Assembly (NCBI GenBank): GCA_963759775.1
Contig: CAVXAH010000001.1
Span: 336,682-400,681 of the forward strand
Reading direction: 5' to 3'
DNA length: 64,000 bases
Source: an uncultured bacterium
GTDB taxonomy: Bacteria; Patescibacteriota; Minisyncoccia; Phycocordibacterales; Phycocordibacteraceae
The position numbers were made by a program, and so were the translations under genes. The first letter of the stretch is position 1. Each line of letters opens with the position of its first letter. This document shows, one piece after another, positions 3,390-34,561 of the stretch. Below the pieces are notes generated by a model, which was given only the letters and a program-made list of their open reading frames with translations, was not told the origin of the DNA and searched no databases.

Positions 3390-4615
3390 TCCGCCGCTTG
3401 TACAGAACAATTCTCTCGCCCTATCACTTTGCCTGGGCACTTGGTTCTGCACTGTGGTACGGATTTCCTGCTAAAAAACTCACTGTCATCGGTGTTACGG
3501 GCACCAAAGGAAAATCTTCGGTAACCGAGATGCTGTACTCAGCGCTTACCCATGCTGGACACCCAACGGCAGTGGCGGGAACTATTCGTTTTGCGATAGG
3601 AAATGAATCGCGCCCGAATTTGTACAAGATGACTTTGCCCGGCCGCTTTTTTATTCAAAAATTCCTTGCGGAGGCGGTACAGAAAGGTGCAACACACGCG
3701 GTGATTGAGATTACTTCCGAGGCCGTGCTCCAGCACCGTCACCTCTTTCTCTTTTTGAATGCACTGGTGTTTACGAATCTTCAGAAAGAACACATTGAGT
3801 CACACGGCTCATTTGAAAAATACGCTAAGGCGAAACTTGCGATAGGCAAAGCGCTCGTGCGTTCACCAAAGCGGCCCCGTGCAGTTATTGCGAACGCCGA
3901 CAACCTCCACAGCATTCCTTTTCTTGCGCTTCCGGTAGAAGAGAAAATTCCGTTTTTGTATGGCGATGCCAAAGAAGTAGCGCTCGGGCCCGGTACTGCC
4001 TCATTTGCGTACGGGGATGTGCGCTTTTCGCTTCACCTGCCCGGCAGTTTCAGCGTTATGAACGCGCTTGCGGTTATTAAGACTGCACACTTTCTTGGCG
4101 TCTCGCTTGAAAAAATTCGTGACGCACTTGCTTCGCTCACACGTATTCCAGGGCGCACAGAACGCATTGAAGCCGGCCAAGATTTTGAGGTCGTTGTGGA
4201 CTACGCACACACCCCCGACTCTCTTGCCGCGCTCTACGCGGCATACCCCGTGCGGAAAATTTGCGTGCTTGGAAATACGGGGGGCGGACGCGATAAATGG
4301 AAGCGTCCTGAAATGGGTCGCATCGCAGATGAGCAGTGTGCAGAGGTGATTCTGACGAATGAAGATCCCTATGACGAGAACCCACGAAGTATTGTGGAAG
4401 AAATGGCGGCCGGCATGAAACGAAAGCCACAGATCATTATGGATAGGCGTGAAGCAATTTGCGCGGCGCTACGCGCCGCGCAAAAAGGAGATGCAGTGCT
4501 CATCACCGGCAAAGGAACCGACCCATTCATTATGGAAGCGCGTGGCAAGAAAACGCCGTGGAGCGATGCGCGCGTTGCACGAGAAGAGCTTGAGAAACTC
4601 GCTCGGGTAGCCTAA
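3386..4615 (+). CDS. Mur ligase family protein, MurE-like
   Basis: P-loop VIGVTGTKGKSS, DYAHTPDSL and NEDPYDENP motifs of Mur ligases; specific substrate not assignable by eye. Confidence 0.75.
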   Translation: MIRRLYRTILSPYHFAWALGSALWYGFPAKKLTVIGVTGTKGKSSVTEMLYSALTHAGHPTAVAGTIRFAIGNESRPNLYKMTLPGRFFIQKFLAEAVQKGATHAVIEITSEAVLQHRHLFLFLNALVFTNLQKEHIESHGSFEKYAKAKLAIGKALVRSPKRPRAVIANADNLHSIPFLALPVEEKIPFLYGDAKEVALGPGTASFAYGDVRFSLHLPGSFSVMNALAVIKTAHFLGVSLEKIRDALASLTRIPGRTERIEAGQDFEVVVDYAHTPDSLAALYAAYPVRKICVLGNTGGGRDKWKRPEMGRIADEQCAEVILTNEDPYDENPRSIVEEMAAGMKRKPQIIMDRREAICAALRAAQKGDAVLITGKGTDPFIMEARGKKTPWSDARVAREELEKLARVA

Positions 4616-6440: not shown

Positions 6441-6513
6441 GCGCCCGTAGCTCAGTCGGTAGAGCAGCTCCCTTTTAAGGAGATGGTCGTTGGTTCGATT
6501 CCTACCGGGCGCA
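6441..6513 (+). tRNA. tRNA-Lys(TTT), no encoded CCA
   Basis: Acceptor GCGCCCG/CGGGCGC, D-arm GCTCAGTCGGTAGAGC, anticodon loop CTTTTAA, T-loop GGTTCGATTCC. Confidence 0.9.
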
Positions 6514-12008: not shown

Positions 12009-12042
12009 AAAAACAGCCCCGACATACGTCGGGGCTGTTTTT
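12009..12042 (+). terminator. Intrinsic terminator after pilB copy 1
   Basis: CAGCCCCGAC ... GTCGGGGCTG 10-bp stem followed by TTTTT. Confidence 0.7.
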
Positions 12043-12133
12043 ACTACCAAGCGAGTCCGAGGCAACAAAAATCTTCTTTTGTTTTTGTGAGGTGAGCGCC
12101 GGGAGAAAGCTTACTTAAATATGGTTCATCGTA

Positions 12134-12280
12134 CGCATGCTCCTCTAGACGGTCCTCGCAATAAAGAGAGGGTGAACGAAACACCTGAGGAAAGTTCCAG
12201 CACTCCACACCGGAGTGTGGCACCAGAAAAACCTTGGGGAGGCGCCCGAAGCCGTCAAGCCTTGCCTAGAGGAGTATGCG
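12134..12280 (+). ncRNA. Candidate structured RNA closed by a 15-bp stem, contains RNase P CR-I-like motif
   Basis: CGCATGCTCCTCTAG (12134-12148) pairs with CTAGAGGAGTATGCG (12266-12280, one G-U); internal hairpin CCACAC-CGGA-GTGTGG; GAGGAAAGTTCC at 12187-12198; TAAATA box at 12116-12121. Confidence 0.35.
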
Positions 12281-12340
12281 CGCGATGAAAAAGAAAAACC
12301 CGTCTGCGGGTGTGCTACAATGCTAGCATAGCTGTATTTT

Positions 12341-13378
12341 ATGTCAAGTCCCTCCAAGCCCACACTGAAGACTTCCGAGGCGGCGGAGCCGTCTATCACG
12401 GAGGTTGTGGGTGGTGCGCTCTCACTTGATTCCGCACTTCGGCCCTCTTCCTGGGACGACTATGTCGGCCAAGGGCAGGTGAAGGCGAATGTTCGTGTCG
12501 TGCTTGATGCCGCCAAGAAGCGCGGCGACATGCCCGAGCATCTTCTTTTTTATGGACCACCAGGTGTTGGAAAAACCACGCTCGCCCACCTCATCGCAGA
12601 GGCGCTTGGCGCACCACTCAAGAGCACTTCGGGTGTTGCAATAGAGCGCGCAGCGGACCTCGCCGCCATTTTGACCAATCTTGAACCAGGGACGGTACTT
12701 TTTATTGATGAAATTCACCAGCTCTCGCCAAAAATAGAAGAGCTCCTCTACCCCGCACTTGAATCAGGCACTTTAGATATTGTGCTTGGTAAGGGTCCCT
12801 CGGCGCGCACGGTGGAACTCTCTCTTCCCTCTTTCACGCTCGTTGGAGCGACGACGCGTGTCGCGCGTCTCTCCGCTCCGCTTCGCTCTCGCTTCGGTGG
12901 CGGCGTGTACCAGCTGGATTTTTACGAGGATGGAGATATTAAACAAATTATTAAGCGCTCCGCGCGCGTGCTTGGTCTTGATGCGCCTTCCGAAGTGGTT
13001 GAAAAGGTTGCGTCCCGTAGCCGTGCCACGCCGCGCGTTGCAAACGCGCTCTTGAAGCGGGTTCGCGATTATGGGCAGGTGCATGAGAAAAAACTTTCGG
13101 GCCCCCTGTGCGATGAGGCGTGCGAATTGTTTGGCATCGATGCGTTTGGTCTTACGAAAGACGATCGCCGCTACCTTGAAACGCTTGAGATGAGCTTCCG
13201 TGGCGGACCCGCCGGCGTGCGAGCCCTTGCGGCCGCTATTCACGAAGACCCTGACACGATGGAGCATGTATACGAGCCGTATCTCCTTCGCCTCGGCTTC
13301 ATTGAGCGCTCCTCTCGCGGCCGCATCTTGACCTCAAAAGGTCGTGCGTATTTAAAGGGGGCTGTAGGAGTATTTTGA
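12341..13378 (+). CDS. ruvB: Holliday junction helicase RuvB
   Basis: AAA+ motifs LLFYGPPGVGKTTLA, VLFIDEIH, sensor and winged-helix C-terminus typical of RuvB. Confidence 0.95.
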   Translation: MSSPSKPTLKTSEAAEPSITEVVGGALSLDSALRPSSWDDYVGQGQVKANVRVVLDAAKKRGDMPEHLLFYGPPGVGKTTLAHLIAEALGAPLKSTSGVAIERAADLAAILTNLEPGTVLFIDEIHQLSPKIEELLYPALESGTLDIVLGKGPSARTVELSLPSFTLVGATTRVARLSAPLRSRFGGGVYQLDFYEDGDIKQIIKRSARVLGLDAPSEVVEKVASRSRATPRVANALLKRVRDYGQVHEKKLSGPLCDEACELFGIDAFGLTKDDRRYLETLEMSFRGGPAGVRALAAAIHEDPDTMEHVYEPYLLRLGFIERSSRGRILTSKGRAYLKGAVGVF

Positions 13379-13388
13379 TTTCACACGC

Positions 13389-13946
13389 ATGGCCGGGCAT
13401 TCAAAATGGGCACAAATTAAGAGACAGAAAGCAGTAACCGACGGCGTAAGGTCGCGTGTATTTTCCCGTTTTGCGCGTCTTATTGCCCTTGAGGCGAAGA
13501 AGGCTGCGGGGAATCTCTCGGCCCCAAATCTCTCAGCAGTTATCGCGCGCGCGAAAGCGGCAAATATGCCGAAAGACAATATTGAACGCGCCATAGCAAA
13601 AGGAACTTCCAAAGACGCGGGTGCTCTAGAACAGGTGGCGTACGAAGCATATGGACCTGGTGGAGCGGCTATTATCATTGACGCTTTGACCGACAGCAAA
13701 AACCGTACGACGCAGGAAATAAAACATCTGCTTTCCGAAAACGGCCTCGAGCTTGGGGCTCCAGGAGCTGCAAGCTGGGCATTTAAAAAATCACCTGATG
13801 GCTCGTATGTTCCAAATGAGCCGCTCGTTGAGGTTGGGGGCGAAGACGAGGCTCGGCTCGGTGAGGTTCTTTCAATTCTCGACGAACACGAGGATGTGCA
13901 AACGGTGTATACGAACGCAAAAGGATATGAGAATACTCGCGATTGA
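13389..13946 (+). CDS. yebC: YebC/PmpR family regulator (short form, 185 aa)
   Basis: MAGHSKWAQIKRQKA N-terminus and EDVQTVYTN C-terminal motif. Confidence 0.8.
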   Translation: MAGHSKWAQIKRQKAVTDGVRSRVFSRFARLIALEAKKAAGNLSAPNLSAVIARAKAANMPKDNIERAIAKGTSKDAGALEQVAYEAYGPGGAAIIIDALTDSKNRTTQEIKHLLSENGLELGAPGAASWAFKKSPDGSYVPNEPLVEVGGEDEARLGEVLSILDEHEDVQTVYTNAKGYENTRD

Positions 13947-14406
13947 TCCCGGCTTTGACCGCCTCGGCATTGCGGTCATTGAGGGCGACCCTTCGCGGCC
14001 GACACATGTGTGGAGCGCGTGCATAGAACCGCCCAAGGGGGCGCGTGAAGTGCGCCTTGCGCATGTATTTTCCGAAATTGAAAAAGCCCTCGCCACCTAC
14101 AAACCGAACATTCTTGCGCTTGAAACTCTTTTTTTTAGTACCAATAAGAAAACGGCAATCGGGGTTGCCGAGGCGCGCGGGGCAATCCTTGCCGCGGCAG
14201 GAAAAGCCAAAATTCCGGTCGCGGAGTATTCCCCTCAGCAGGTGAAGCTTGCGGTGACTGGCTACGGCGCAGCGGACAAAAAAGCGATGGCACAGATGAT
14301 TCCCAAACTTCTCTTGCTTCCCCCAAAACCTCGCCGGCGTGATGATGAACTTGATGCAATAGCGCTTGGTATTGCCGCCCTCGCGTCCCGTATTTCCTTT
14401 ACATAA
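13927..14406 (+). CDS. ruvC: Crossover junction endodeoxyribonuclease RuvC
   Basis: MRILAIDPGFDRLGIAVIE start (catalytic Asp), ...DELDAIALGIA C-terminal motif; overlaps yebC end by 20 nt; longer ORF from 13753 rejected. Confidence 0.85.
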   Translation: MRILAIDPGFDRLGIAVIEGDPSRPTHVWSACIEPPKGAREVRLAHVFSEIEKALATYKPNILALETLFFSTNKKTAIGVAEARGAILAAAGKAKIPVAEYSPQQVKLAVTGYGAADKKAMAQMIPKLLLLPPKPRRRDDELDAIALGIAALASRISFT

Positions 14407-19799: not shown

Positions 19800-19937
19800 A
19801 TGGCAAAACGAACATTCCAACCAAAAAAACGTAAGCGCGCGAAAACACACGGCTTTAGAAAGCGCATGAAGTCGAGTTCTGGTCGTGCAATCGTGCAAAG
19901 ACGTCGTCGTATGGGTAGAAAGCGCCTCTCGAGGTAA
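19800..19937 (+). CDS. rpmH: Ribosomal protein L34
   Basis: 45-aa [26 protein letters not shown]..., below ORF-track cutoff, found by reading the sequence. Confidence 0.9.
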
Positions 19938-32214: not shown

Positions 32215-32286
32215 GCCCCTGTAGTGAAACGGATCTCACAACAGTCTTCGGAACTGTTATTCCGGGTTCGACTCCTGGCGGGGGCA
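32215..32286 (+). tRNA. tRNA-Arg(TCG), no encoded CCA
   Basis: Acceptor GCCCCTG/CGGGGGC, anticodon stem ACAGT/ACTGT loop CTTCGGA, T-arm CCGGG-TTCGACT-CCTGG; TACTAT box 8 nt upstream. Confidence 0.85.
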
Positions 32287-32343
32287 CAAGAAAAATTAAA
32301 AAGTGGAAAGGTAAGCGAAGCGCATGTTATGATTGCGCGCGTA

Positions 32344-32417
32344 GCGGGCATGGTTCAGTGGTAGAACGCGTCCTTGCCAAGGACGAGACGGGATTTCGAT
32401 TATCCCTGCCCGCACCA
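32344..32417 (+). tRNA. tRNA-Gly(GCC), the only tRNA here with genomically encoded CCA
   Basis: Acceptor GCGGGCA/TGCCCGC, anticodon loop TTGCCAA, T-loop TTCGATT, then A-CCA (32414-32417). Confidence 0.9.
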
Positions 32418-33030: not shown

Positions 33031-33101
33031 CGGGGCGTCGTATACCGGTAGTACGCTTGGTTTGGGACCAAGATGACCGGGTTCGATTCCCGGCGCCCCG
33101 A
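33031..33101 (+). tRNA. tRNA-Pro(TGG), no encoded CCA
   Basis: Acceptor CGGGGCG/CGCCCCG, anticodon stem CTTGG/CCAAG loop TTTGGGA, T-arm CCGGG-TTCGATT-CCCGG. Confidence 0.85.
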
Positions 33102-34490: not shown

Positions 34491-34561
34491 GCGGGATTAG
34501 TTTAATGGTAAAACATCAGTTTTCCAAACTGATGACACCGGTTCGATTCCGGTATCCCGCA
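34491..34561 (+). tRNA. tRNA-Gly(TCC), no encoded CCA
   Basis: Acceptor GCGGGAT/ATCCCGC, anticodon stem TCAGT/ACTGA loop TTTCCAA, T-arm ACCGG-TTCGATT-CCGGT. Confidence 0.9.

Follow-up and report, generated by a model that had tools for sequence, protein, structure and literature searches.

What lies in the short interval between a pilB-type ATPase gene and ruvB on this Phycocordibacteraceae contig (CAVXAH010000001.1)? We analyzed the whole stretch of DNA introduced above (positions 336,682 to 400,681; 64 kb), which we refer to as the window. A first-pass annotation had marked the interval as a stem-closed RNA candidate, described on the plus strand, and had asked whether it could be a strongly reduced RNase P RNA. 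We are highly confident that the interval holds a real noncoding RNA gene, that this gene is on the minus strand, and that its product is something other than RNase P RNA. The candidate stands as a conserved stem-closed noncoding RNA; its strand, promoter, and boundaries were wrong. The core of the RNA is as follows.

12127 to 12287, minus strand: structured RNA core of 161 nucleotides (nt), read from 12287 to 12127, delimited by the covariance model R1 and by covariation.

The minimum free energy of the element was compared with 200 dinucleotide shuffles for each strand. The plus strand folds at −65.2 kcal/mol (z = −4.6) and the minus strand at −64.9 kcal/mol (z = −3.6), and none of the 200 shuffles was as good on either. 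The stem-closed element is thus real, although with nearly equal folds the window sequence alone cannot tell the strand.

The strand becomes clear from the homologues. With nhmmer (E down to 5e-39), the element was located just upstream of ruvB in 44 related genomes, and 15 metagenome contigs also carry it. The homologue set has 59 members, 58 of them distinct. In a first alignment, A1, the minus-strand reading shows many conserved U·G and G·U pairs, replaced in some members by C-G or U-A; on the plus strand they would be A·C mismatches. Three pairs of A1 columns illustrate this.

Columns 19 and 176, minus strand: UG 26, CG 17.
Columns 78 and 108, minus strand: UG 41.
Columns 79 and 107, minus strand: GU 43.

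Over 55 pairs in the 58 distinct homologues, the minus-strand reading contains 495 cells with G·U and 48 with A·C. RNAalifold on the alignment of homologues gave −53.9 kcal/mol for the minus strand and −30.8 kcal/mol for the plus strand; on the tool's own alignment the minus strand reached −58.2 kcal/mol. With the model R1, the window reaches 148 bits (E 3e-38) when read on the minus strand and 27.9 bits when read on the plus strand. A plus-strand RNA is ruled out by these cell counts, energies, and scores. The plus-strand helix had looked cleaner because the window copy happens to have two C·A mismatches in the outer part of the closing helix P1 when read on the minus strand.

This strand asymmetry in G·U pairing means that selection acts at the level of RNA, which argues against both a small coding open reading frame (ORF) and an inverted repeat that functions as DNA. 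Two ORFs do cross the element in the window, one at 12121-12288 on the plus strand (55 aa) and one at 12145-12399 on the minus strand (84 aa). Among the 59 homologues there is no open frame in 34 on the plus strand and in 31 on the minus strand. The lengths of the homologues spread over all three residues modulo 3, with no codon periodicity, and neither ORF matches Pfam. The minus-strand frame had already been called spurious, and its lack of conservation in the homologues bears this out. We give a coding or DNA-level explanation practically no credence.

The fold was examined in alignment A3, which contains the 59 homologues and excludes L005. Standard pairs fill 94.7% of the cells. Covariation in relatives, which had been proposed as a check, is extensive: compensatory changes occur in 32 of the 50 pairs (34 of 54 predicted pairs in the first RNAalifold structure). 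There are 429 doubly changed cells; column shuffles give 114±11, and sliding the partners by 1-3 columns gives 47-83. L005 has an N run and foreign-looking sequence within the RNA (3691-3899), an assembly gap or scaffolding artefact. Six helices make up the RNA, which is 126-171 nt long across the homologues.

12287-12264 with 12150-12127, minus strand: P1, 22 pairs, 17 of them with changes on both sides.
12262-12258 with 12253-12249, minus strand: P2, AGGCU-UGAC-GGCUU, a tiny, near-invariant junction hairpin with the loop UGAC.
12246-12232 with 12190-12174, minus strand: P3, three short segments split by invariant loops, including a CA/CA 2×2 loop.
12228-12222 with 12201-12195, minus strand: P4, covarying in its lower part, with a conserved UGGU/GCUG wobble motif at its top.
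12220-12216 with 12209-12205, minus strand: P5, a variable capping hairpin in which all pairs covary and the loop varies.
12171-12166 with 12159-12154, minus strand: P6, a hairpin in which all 6 pairs covary and the loop varies.

P1 closes the RNA. Its top 11 pairs are also conserved in sequence, and the 5′ strand of this top reads ACUCCUCUAGGC in the window and ACCCUCUAGGC in the family consensus. The 15-bp helix described earlier (12134-12148 with 12266-12280, with one G-T on the plus strand) is present, but it is only the inner part of P1; its arm at 12134-12148 lies within the 3′ strand at 12150-12127. The block around P2, GGCAAGGCUUGACGGCUU, is the most conserved stretch of the RNA. The few changes in P2 (G·U to A-U, and C-G exchanged with U·G) preserve pairing on the minus strand only. 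In P3 the 5′ strand reads GGCG...CCCCAAGG with invariant internal-loop bases, and the 3′ strand reads CCUCAGG.G...CGUUC, the antisense of which holds the start of the GAGGA motif discussed below. P5 is the hairpin CCACAC-CGGA-GTGTGG, which was correctly noted at 12205-12220.

A mutual-information scan adds P3 pairs toward the junction (A3 columns 47-131, 48-130, and 52-125), and the first RNAalifold run suggests two more junction pairs, 12246-12174 and 12245-12175. With P3 extended in this way, the helices meet at the center of the RNA in a tight four-way junction whose linkers are 0-3 nt long. We also considered a pseudoknot between GACGG at the P2 loop and UCGUY. This was rejected, since the covariation of columns 47-131 and 48-130 favors a nested helix, P3a.

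About eight short forms of 126-141 nt lack P6 (L042 at 3773-3898, L040, L041, L083, L015, L022, L043, and L002), and the 126-nt RNA of L042 lacks P5 as well. They define a minimal conserved core of P1, P2, P3, and P4 with UGGU/GCUG. In L042 a UUAC loop is closed by UGGU/GCUG with three wobble pairs, which suggests that this motif is a specialized surface and not a plain helix. Some 30 invariant bases cluster at the top of P1, in the junction, in P2, in the loops of P3, and in upper P4. Sequence and length are free to vary in the apical loops of P5 and P6.

No known family or fold accounts for this RNA, which constitutes a new, well-supported structured RNA family. Rfam 15 was scanned at gathering scores and at E≤1 on the whole window, and at E≤10 on 501 nt, on the 206-nt element, and on 11 homologous loci; the L042 short form was also scanned. 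The scans at E≤10, the Infernal search that had been proposed for the region, returned no family on any of these sequences, including RNase P, 6S, signal recognition particle (SRP), and transfer-messenger RNA (tmRNA). The best fragments on the 206-nt element are at chance level (CRISPR-DR11, 15 bits, E 2.2; Glutamine-II, 8.9 bits, E 7). At gathering scores the 64-kb window contains six tRNAs only, and at E≤1 it contains no RNase P, 6S, SRP, or tmRNA match and only chance-level fragments beyond the tRNAs. The L042 short form matched neither RF00013 nor a related model. Full-text literature searches gave no description of this RNA. Several resemblances to strings of known RNAs were also checked against the alignment. 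These were a T-box string (UGGUACCGCG), twister (CCCAAGCC...GGAGGG), a glutamine riboswitch (CGUUCACC), SRP CCAAGG/UCAGG, CsrA CAAGGA, and the P4-like CGGCUU. All failed, as the bases are unconserved or the order or topology is wrong, and none has model support.

Is the RNA nevertheless an extremely reduced RNase P RNA, a catalytic core only, which works with the RnpA encoded at 19937? The rnpA gene at this position is real (PF00825, 45 bits) and is followed by yidC, and no RNase P RNA was found in the 64-kb window. The plus strand carries both GAGGAAAGTTCC at 12188-12199, which had been likened to conserved region I (CR-I), and ACCAGAAAAACC at 12221-12232, which had been likened to CR-V. The minus strand carries CGGCUU, which resembles the 3′ strand of RNase P P4. 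Both plus-strand strings are present, but on the non-transcribed strand. GAGGAAAGTTCC is antisense to the RNA and only its GAGGA (antisense UCCUC) is conserved; the five bases that follow GAGGA vary freely among 43-59 homologues, and in the same set CR-I (GAGGAAAGUCC) is not conserved on the transcribed strand. ACCAGAAAAACC is not conserved as such.

The architecture differs as well. The RNA has only nested local helices, P1-P6; neither a P4 pseudoknot nor a long-range P4 helix between CR-I and CR-V appears in the RNAalifold structure, the pair counts, or the mutual-information scan. The catalytic and specificity domains of RNase P RNA take up ~300-400 nt, or ~200 nt in the smallest forms known, compared with 126-171 nt and six helices here, and no RNase P model matched at E≤10. 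The likeness to RF00010/RF00011 consists of short strings only (antisense GAGGAAAGUUCC and sense CGGCUU) and an rnpA gene 7.7 kb away, while the P4 pseudoknot and the specificity domain are lacking and the size is less than half the minimum. The presence of rnpA at 19937 carries no information on the RNA locus, and the 64-kb window is a small part of the genome. In 35 circular candidate phyla radiation (CPR) genomes, all RNase P RNAs were diverged members of type A, and 10 of the 35 were detected only with a lowered RF00010 threshold (PMC8172020). The CPR genomes studied so far thus have recognizable type-A RNAs, and this genome is expected to carry a more canonical rnpB at another site. We consider a reduced RNase P RNA at this locus extremely improbable. 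The case carries a caution, that short motif-like strings on the wrong strand of a symmetric stem-loop can mimic a famous family by chance. The fallback offered in the first-pass annotation, an unrelated small RNA (sRNA; "6S-like rod?"), was essentially right insofar as this is a conserved stem-closed noncoding RNA.

The gene appears to have its own transcription signals. Those at the 5′ end are listed here.

12320 to 12347, minus strand: predicted promoter of the RNA, from a consensus scan, with −35 TTGACA (12347-12342), a 16-nt spacer, and TGc-TAGCAT (12328-12320).
12288 to 12313, minus strand: leader, with the hairpin ACCCG-CAGA-CGGGU (12311-12298) and then the U-rich tract UUUUUCUUUUU (12297-12288), which adjoins P1.
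12313 to 12321, plus strand: putative extended −10 of ruvB, TGCTACAAT, which overlaps the −10 of the RNA within the palindrome ATGCTAGCAT.

The combination of TTGACA, a spacer of 16-18 nt with TGn at its end, and TAnnnT is found upstream of the RNA in 56 of the 59 homologues, and in the window transcription is predicted to start near 12313. Between the predicted start and P1 lie 8-121 nt. In 11 homologues this interval is 8-12 nt and there is no hairpin (e.g., ATAGTTTTCTT), so this predicted promoter drives the RNA directly. The leader hairpin is optional and variable. Longer leaders insert one or two hairpins, the last of which is followed by the U-rich tract (UUUUUCUUU), and a U-rich tract beside P1 is found in most members. 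In the window, the predicted hairpin and tract look like an intrinsic terminator; they may attenuate the RNA, protect its 5′ end, or serve as a processing signal. In many leaders (L007, L009, L020, L024, L028, L029, and others) two hairpins with possible alternative pairing (ACGAGG/CCUUGU versus GGCCUUGUGAG/CUCACGGGGCU) precede the U tract, and the arrangement resembles an attenuator or a tiny separate RNA. A string like ACCUUC recurs within this module. A second promoter, placed after the U tract and ahead of P1, was considered and rejected, as the −10-like hexamers at that site (TTACAT, TATCAT) are the tail of the U tract and the conserved promoter is further upstream.

On the other side of the palindrome, conserved TGTGCTAGAAT blocks in relatives match the putative extended −10 of ruvB. 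The palindrome (ATGCTAGCAT / TGCTAGCATTCTAGCA) offers one extended −10 per strand, TGCTACAAT on the plus strand and TGCTAGCAT on the minus strand (12313-12347 in the window; blocks in L001-L043). With overlapping −10 elements, the RNA and ruvB would start back to back, and they appear to share a bidirectional promoter. The −35 TTGACA of the RNA overlaps the ruvB start codon, ATG at 12341. The spacing in L040 and L041 suggests a leaderless ruvB mRNA. The 16-bp palindrome is also a candidate operator, perhaps of the SOS-box type.

This arrangement speaks for a local role in cis, in which the strong divergent promoter and its stable transcript would serve mainly to modulate ruvB-yebC-ruvC by promoter competition or would insulate against read-through from pilB. 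Besides the overlap of the −10 elements and of the −35 with the ruvB start codon, the RNA is divergent from ruvB wherever this can be checked, even where its other neighbor has changed. Promoter competition, however, needs no 160-nt RNA with at least 50 selected pairs and invariant loops, and the linkage may merely reflect conserved gene order in one lineage. We regard a purely local function as improbable.

TAAATA at 12116-12121 is present, but it is not the 5′ box that it was taken for; it lies 3′ of the RNA in an unconserved stretch. In relatives a terminator hairpin adjoins the RNA on this side, and 31 of 43 relatives have a hairpin with A-/U-rich arms and a U-rich tail 3′ of the RNA, usually within 20 nt. 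The corresponding element of the window is 85 nt beyond P1.

12014 to 12042, both strands: bidirectional intrinsic terminator, AAAAACAGCCCCGAC-GUAU-GUCGGGGCUGUUUUU, common to pilB (plus strand) and the RNA (minus strand).

Transcription of the RNA is predicted to end at this terminator shared with pilB (12042-12014). A terminator within 1-20 nt of the RNA in many relatives, together with a compact four-way junction whose many invariant bases resemble the cores of aptamers and ribozymes, brings to mind a ligand-sensing or catalytic RNA (an orphan aptamer or ribozyme), which might control terminator read-through into antisense pilB. The 22 pairs of P1, however, would be far too stable for a switching helix, and what follows the RNA in the window, as in the homologues with a pilB match, is the convergent pilB, with no downstream gene in the sense of the RNA. 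The terminator of the window is 85 nt away, and no family matches, since the best candidate, Glutamine-II at 8.9 bits (E = 7), is at chance level. A convergent neighbor and a closing helix of 22 pairs instead of a short switching one are also not what a riboswitch or leader would present. We judge this explanation to be very unlikely.

Independence as a gene, with a promoter and a terminator of its own, would also suit a base-pairing regulatory sRNA, with the fold as a scaffold and a single-stranded seed in the 5′ U-rich tract, CCCCAAGGA, or UCCUCAGG. The RNA does have conserved unpaired stretches and a U-rich single strand beside a stem. Conservation, however, takes in both the junction and the internal loops in a strongly covarying rigid fold and is not confined to one seed, and the conserved "unpaired" bases oppose each other across internal loops. 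No target came to light, and no search aimed at one was made. A seed-pairing function is unlikely in our view.

The whole of the evidence is, we think, somewhat better explained by an independent minus-strand RNA gene whose rigid fold acts in trans and binds protein, with a 6S-type outline as the best fit. A near-consensus sigma-70 promoter (12347-12320), back to back with that of ruvB, would start the RNA near 12313. The transcript would comprise a short leader (an optional hairpin and the U-rich tract) and then the 161-nt core (12287-12127), and would end at the shared terminator. P1 locks the 5′ and 3′ ends together, and the four-way junction carries P2, the P3-P4-P5 arm, and the dispensable P6. 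Such an RNA may be stable and long-lived and, given the promoter, is probably abundant; it would act in trans by being recognized for its shape, most probably by a protein. Its invariant junction and internal loops would be presented to a putative protein partner, with the RNA as a subunit of a ribonucleoprotein (RNP) or as a decoy. Neither base pairing through a seed nor ligand sensing in cis would be involved. For the central element, a trans-acting protein-binding RNA with a hypothetical protein partner, we consider the chances about even.

Among known mechanisms, 6S-type RNA would be the best fit in outline. 6S RNA is ~150-200 nt long, has its ends in a long closing helix and a large central bubble, binds the sigma-70 holoenzyme, and templates a product RNA. 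The RNA described here is of similar size (126-171 nt) and has its ends paired in a long, interrupted closing helix, the 22-pair P1. It also resembles 6S RNA (ssrS, RF00013) in its conserved, asymmetric center and in an apical arm that is long and interrupted. Both are encoded by single-copy genes that stand alone, with a strong sigma-70 promoter and a terminator of their own, which are predictions here. The resemblance is stronger in the roughly eight short forms without P6, which look bubble-like, their asymmetric central loop lying between the closing stem and the apical arm. It differs in that no 6S model matches at E≤10 and in that its center is mostly a closed four-way junction with an invariant mini-hairpin.

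Several points weigh against the trans-acting, 6S-type explanation. The 6S comparison is without sequence support, as RF00013 and all other families fail at E≤10. Most members have a four-way junction with the invariant P2 and not an open central bubble, and a closed junction argues against a simple mimic of an open promoter. A canonical 6S RNA may exist elsewhere in the genome, given that the scans covered the window and homologous loci. The strict linkage to the ruvB promoter could mean a local role. In many relatives the leader hairpin and U tract resemble an intrinsic terminator ahead of the RNA. The promoter, the start site, and the ends of the RNA are sequence predictions. A 6S-like role in the specific sense, with binding to RNA polymerase, is accordingly a minor possibility, which we hold to be doubtful.

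Other stable RNAs offer partial likenesses. SRP RNA (4.5S, RF00169) is also a stem-closed stable RNA that is transcribed with a 5′ leader. The apical loops of the present RNA are variable, however, and it is without the conserved GNRA tetraloop, the symmetric/asymmetric loop pattern of helix 8, and an Rfam match. Orphan structured bacterial noncoding RNAs that came from comparative genomics and have no known function, such as the raiA motif, ROOL, GOLLD, and OLE, are similar in being lineage-restricted and intergenic, with strong covariation, many invariant junction bases, and no adjacent gene that is obviously regulated. The present RNA is much smaller than ROOL, GOLLD, and OLE, and its fold is different.

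We see appreciable room, short of an even chance, for a hitherto undescribed structured RNA class that has its own biochemical role and is no divergent form of 6S, SRP, or RNase P RNA. It could, for instance, be the RNA component of a novel RNP specific to a Paceibacteria lineage. The four-way junction, the CA/CA loop, and UGGU/GCUG would be its functional surface; that a UGG-type motif contacts the 3′-CCA ends of tRNAs is pure speculation.

Patescibacteria (CPR) are ultra-small bacteria whose genomes are ~0.6-1 Mb in size, with little room for dispensable genes. To our knowledge, their noncoding RNA repertoire is almost unexplored. The comparative-genomics surveys of noncoding RNA that we checked do not cover Patescibacteria (PMC11109978). 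The near-consensus promoter, the more than 50 selected pairs, the ~30 invariant bases, and the single locus across the lineage make an important role very likely. If the RNA is the equivalent of 6S RNA, it shows how far the 6S family can drift. If it is not, it represents a new class of RNA or RNP in organisms that cannot yet be cultivated on their own. With the 59-sequence alignment and the covariance model, the RNA can be tested directly, both in metatranscriptomes and in vitro.

As far as seen, the RNA is restricted to one Paceibacteria lineage (Kaiserbacteria, Wolfebacteria, UBA2103). The closest relatives of the RuvB encoded in the window (12341-13375) come from Patescibacteria metagenome-assembled genomes (MAGs) labeled Paceibacterota, Kaiserbacteria, Parcubacteria, UBA2103, and Wolfebacteria. 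No copy was found within ±4 kb of ruvB in Patescibacteria with ~50-55% RuvB identity or in other phyla. There is one copy in the window and in each homologous locus examined. Metagenome contigs were queried with the most conserved block, GGCAARGYYTGACGGCT, which gave 120 pattern matches. Sixteen of these fit the covariance model, one being cut by a contig end, and ~100 of the 120 are chance matches. One contig (L195, 2092-2228, minus strand, 70% GC) gave a weak model match of 19.6 bits (E 0.004), which is outside the usual score range of the family and is probably a false positive. A phage or mobile origin was rejected, as the model fits none of the 64 viral contigs with a pattern match. Some MAGs with the same RNA (L002, L004, L005, L009, L012, and others) are labeled "Candidatus Saccharibacteria" or "Bacillota". 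Their RuvB proteins are 75-84% identical to those of Paceibacteria/Kaiserbacteria genomes, and the taxonomic labels look unreliable.

Wherever the flanks suffice, the neighbors of the element are a convergent gene for a pilB-type ATPase and a divergent ruvB. In a few genomes the pilB side is replaced by another gene, whereas ruvB is constant where the flank allows a check, and the order ruvB-yebC-ruvC is kept. The gene order of the window, from Pfam matches, and its tRNA genes are given here.

Gene order in the window: polA (minus), tsaE (minus), pilB/T2SSE (plus), the RNA (minus), ruvB (plus), yebC (plus), ruvC (plus), class-A penicillin-binding protein (plus).
2181-2265, 6441-6513, 32215-32414, 33031-33101, and 34491-34561: the six tRNA genes of the window, four of them clustered at 32.2-34.6 kb.

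The listed ORFs of yebC (13389-13946) and ruvC (13753-14406) overlap by ~190 nt. The RuvC domain begins at residue 61 of its ORF, thus suggesting that the true start of ruvC is probably further downstream.

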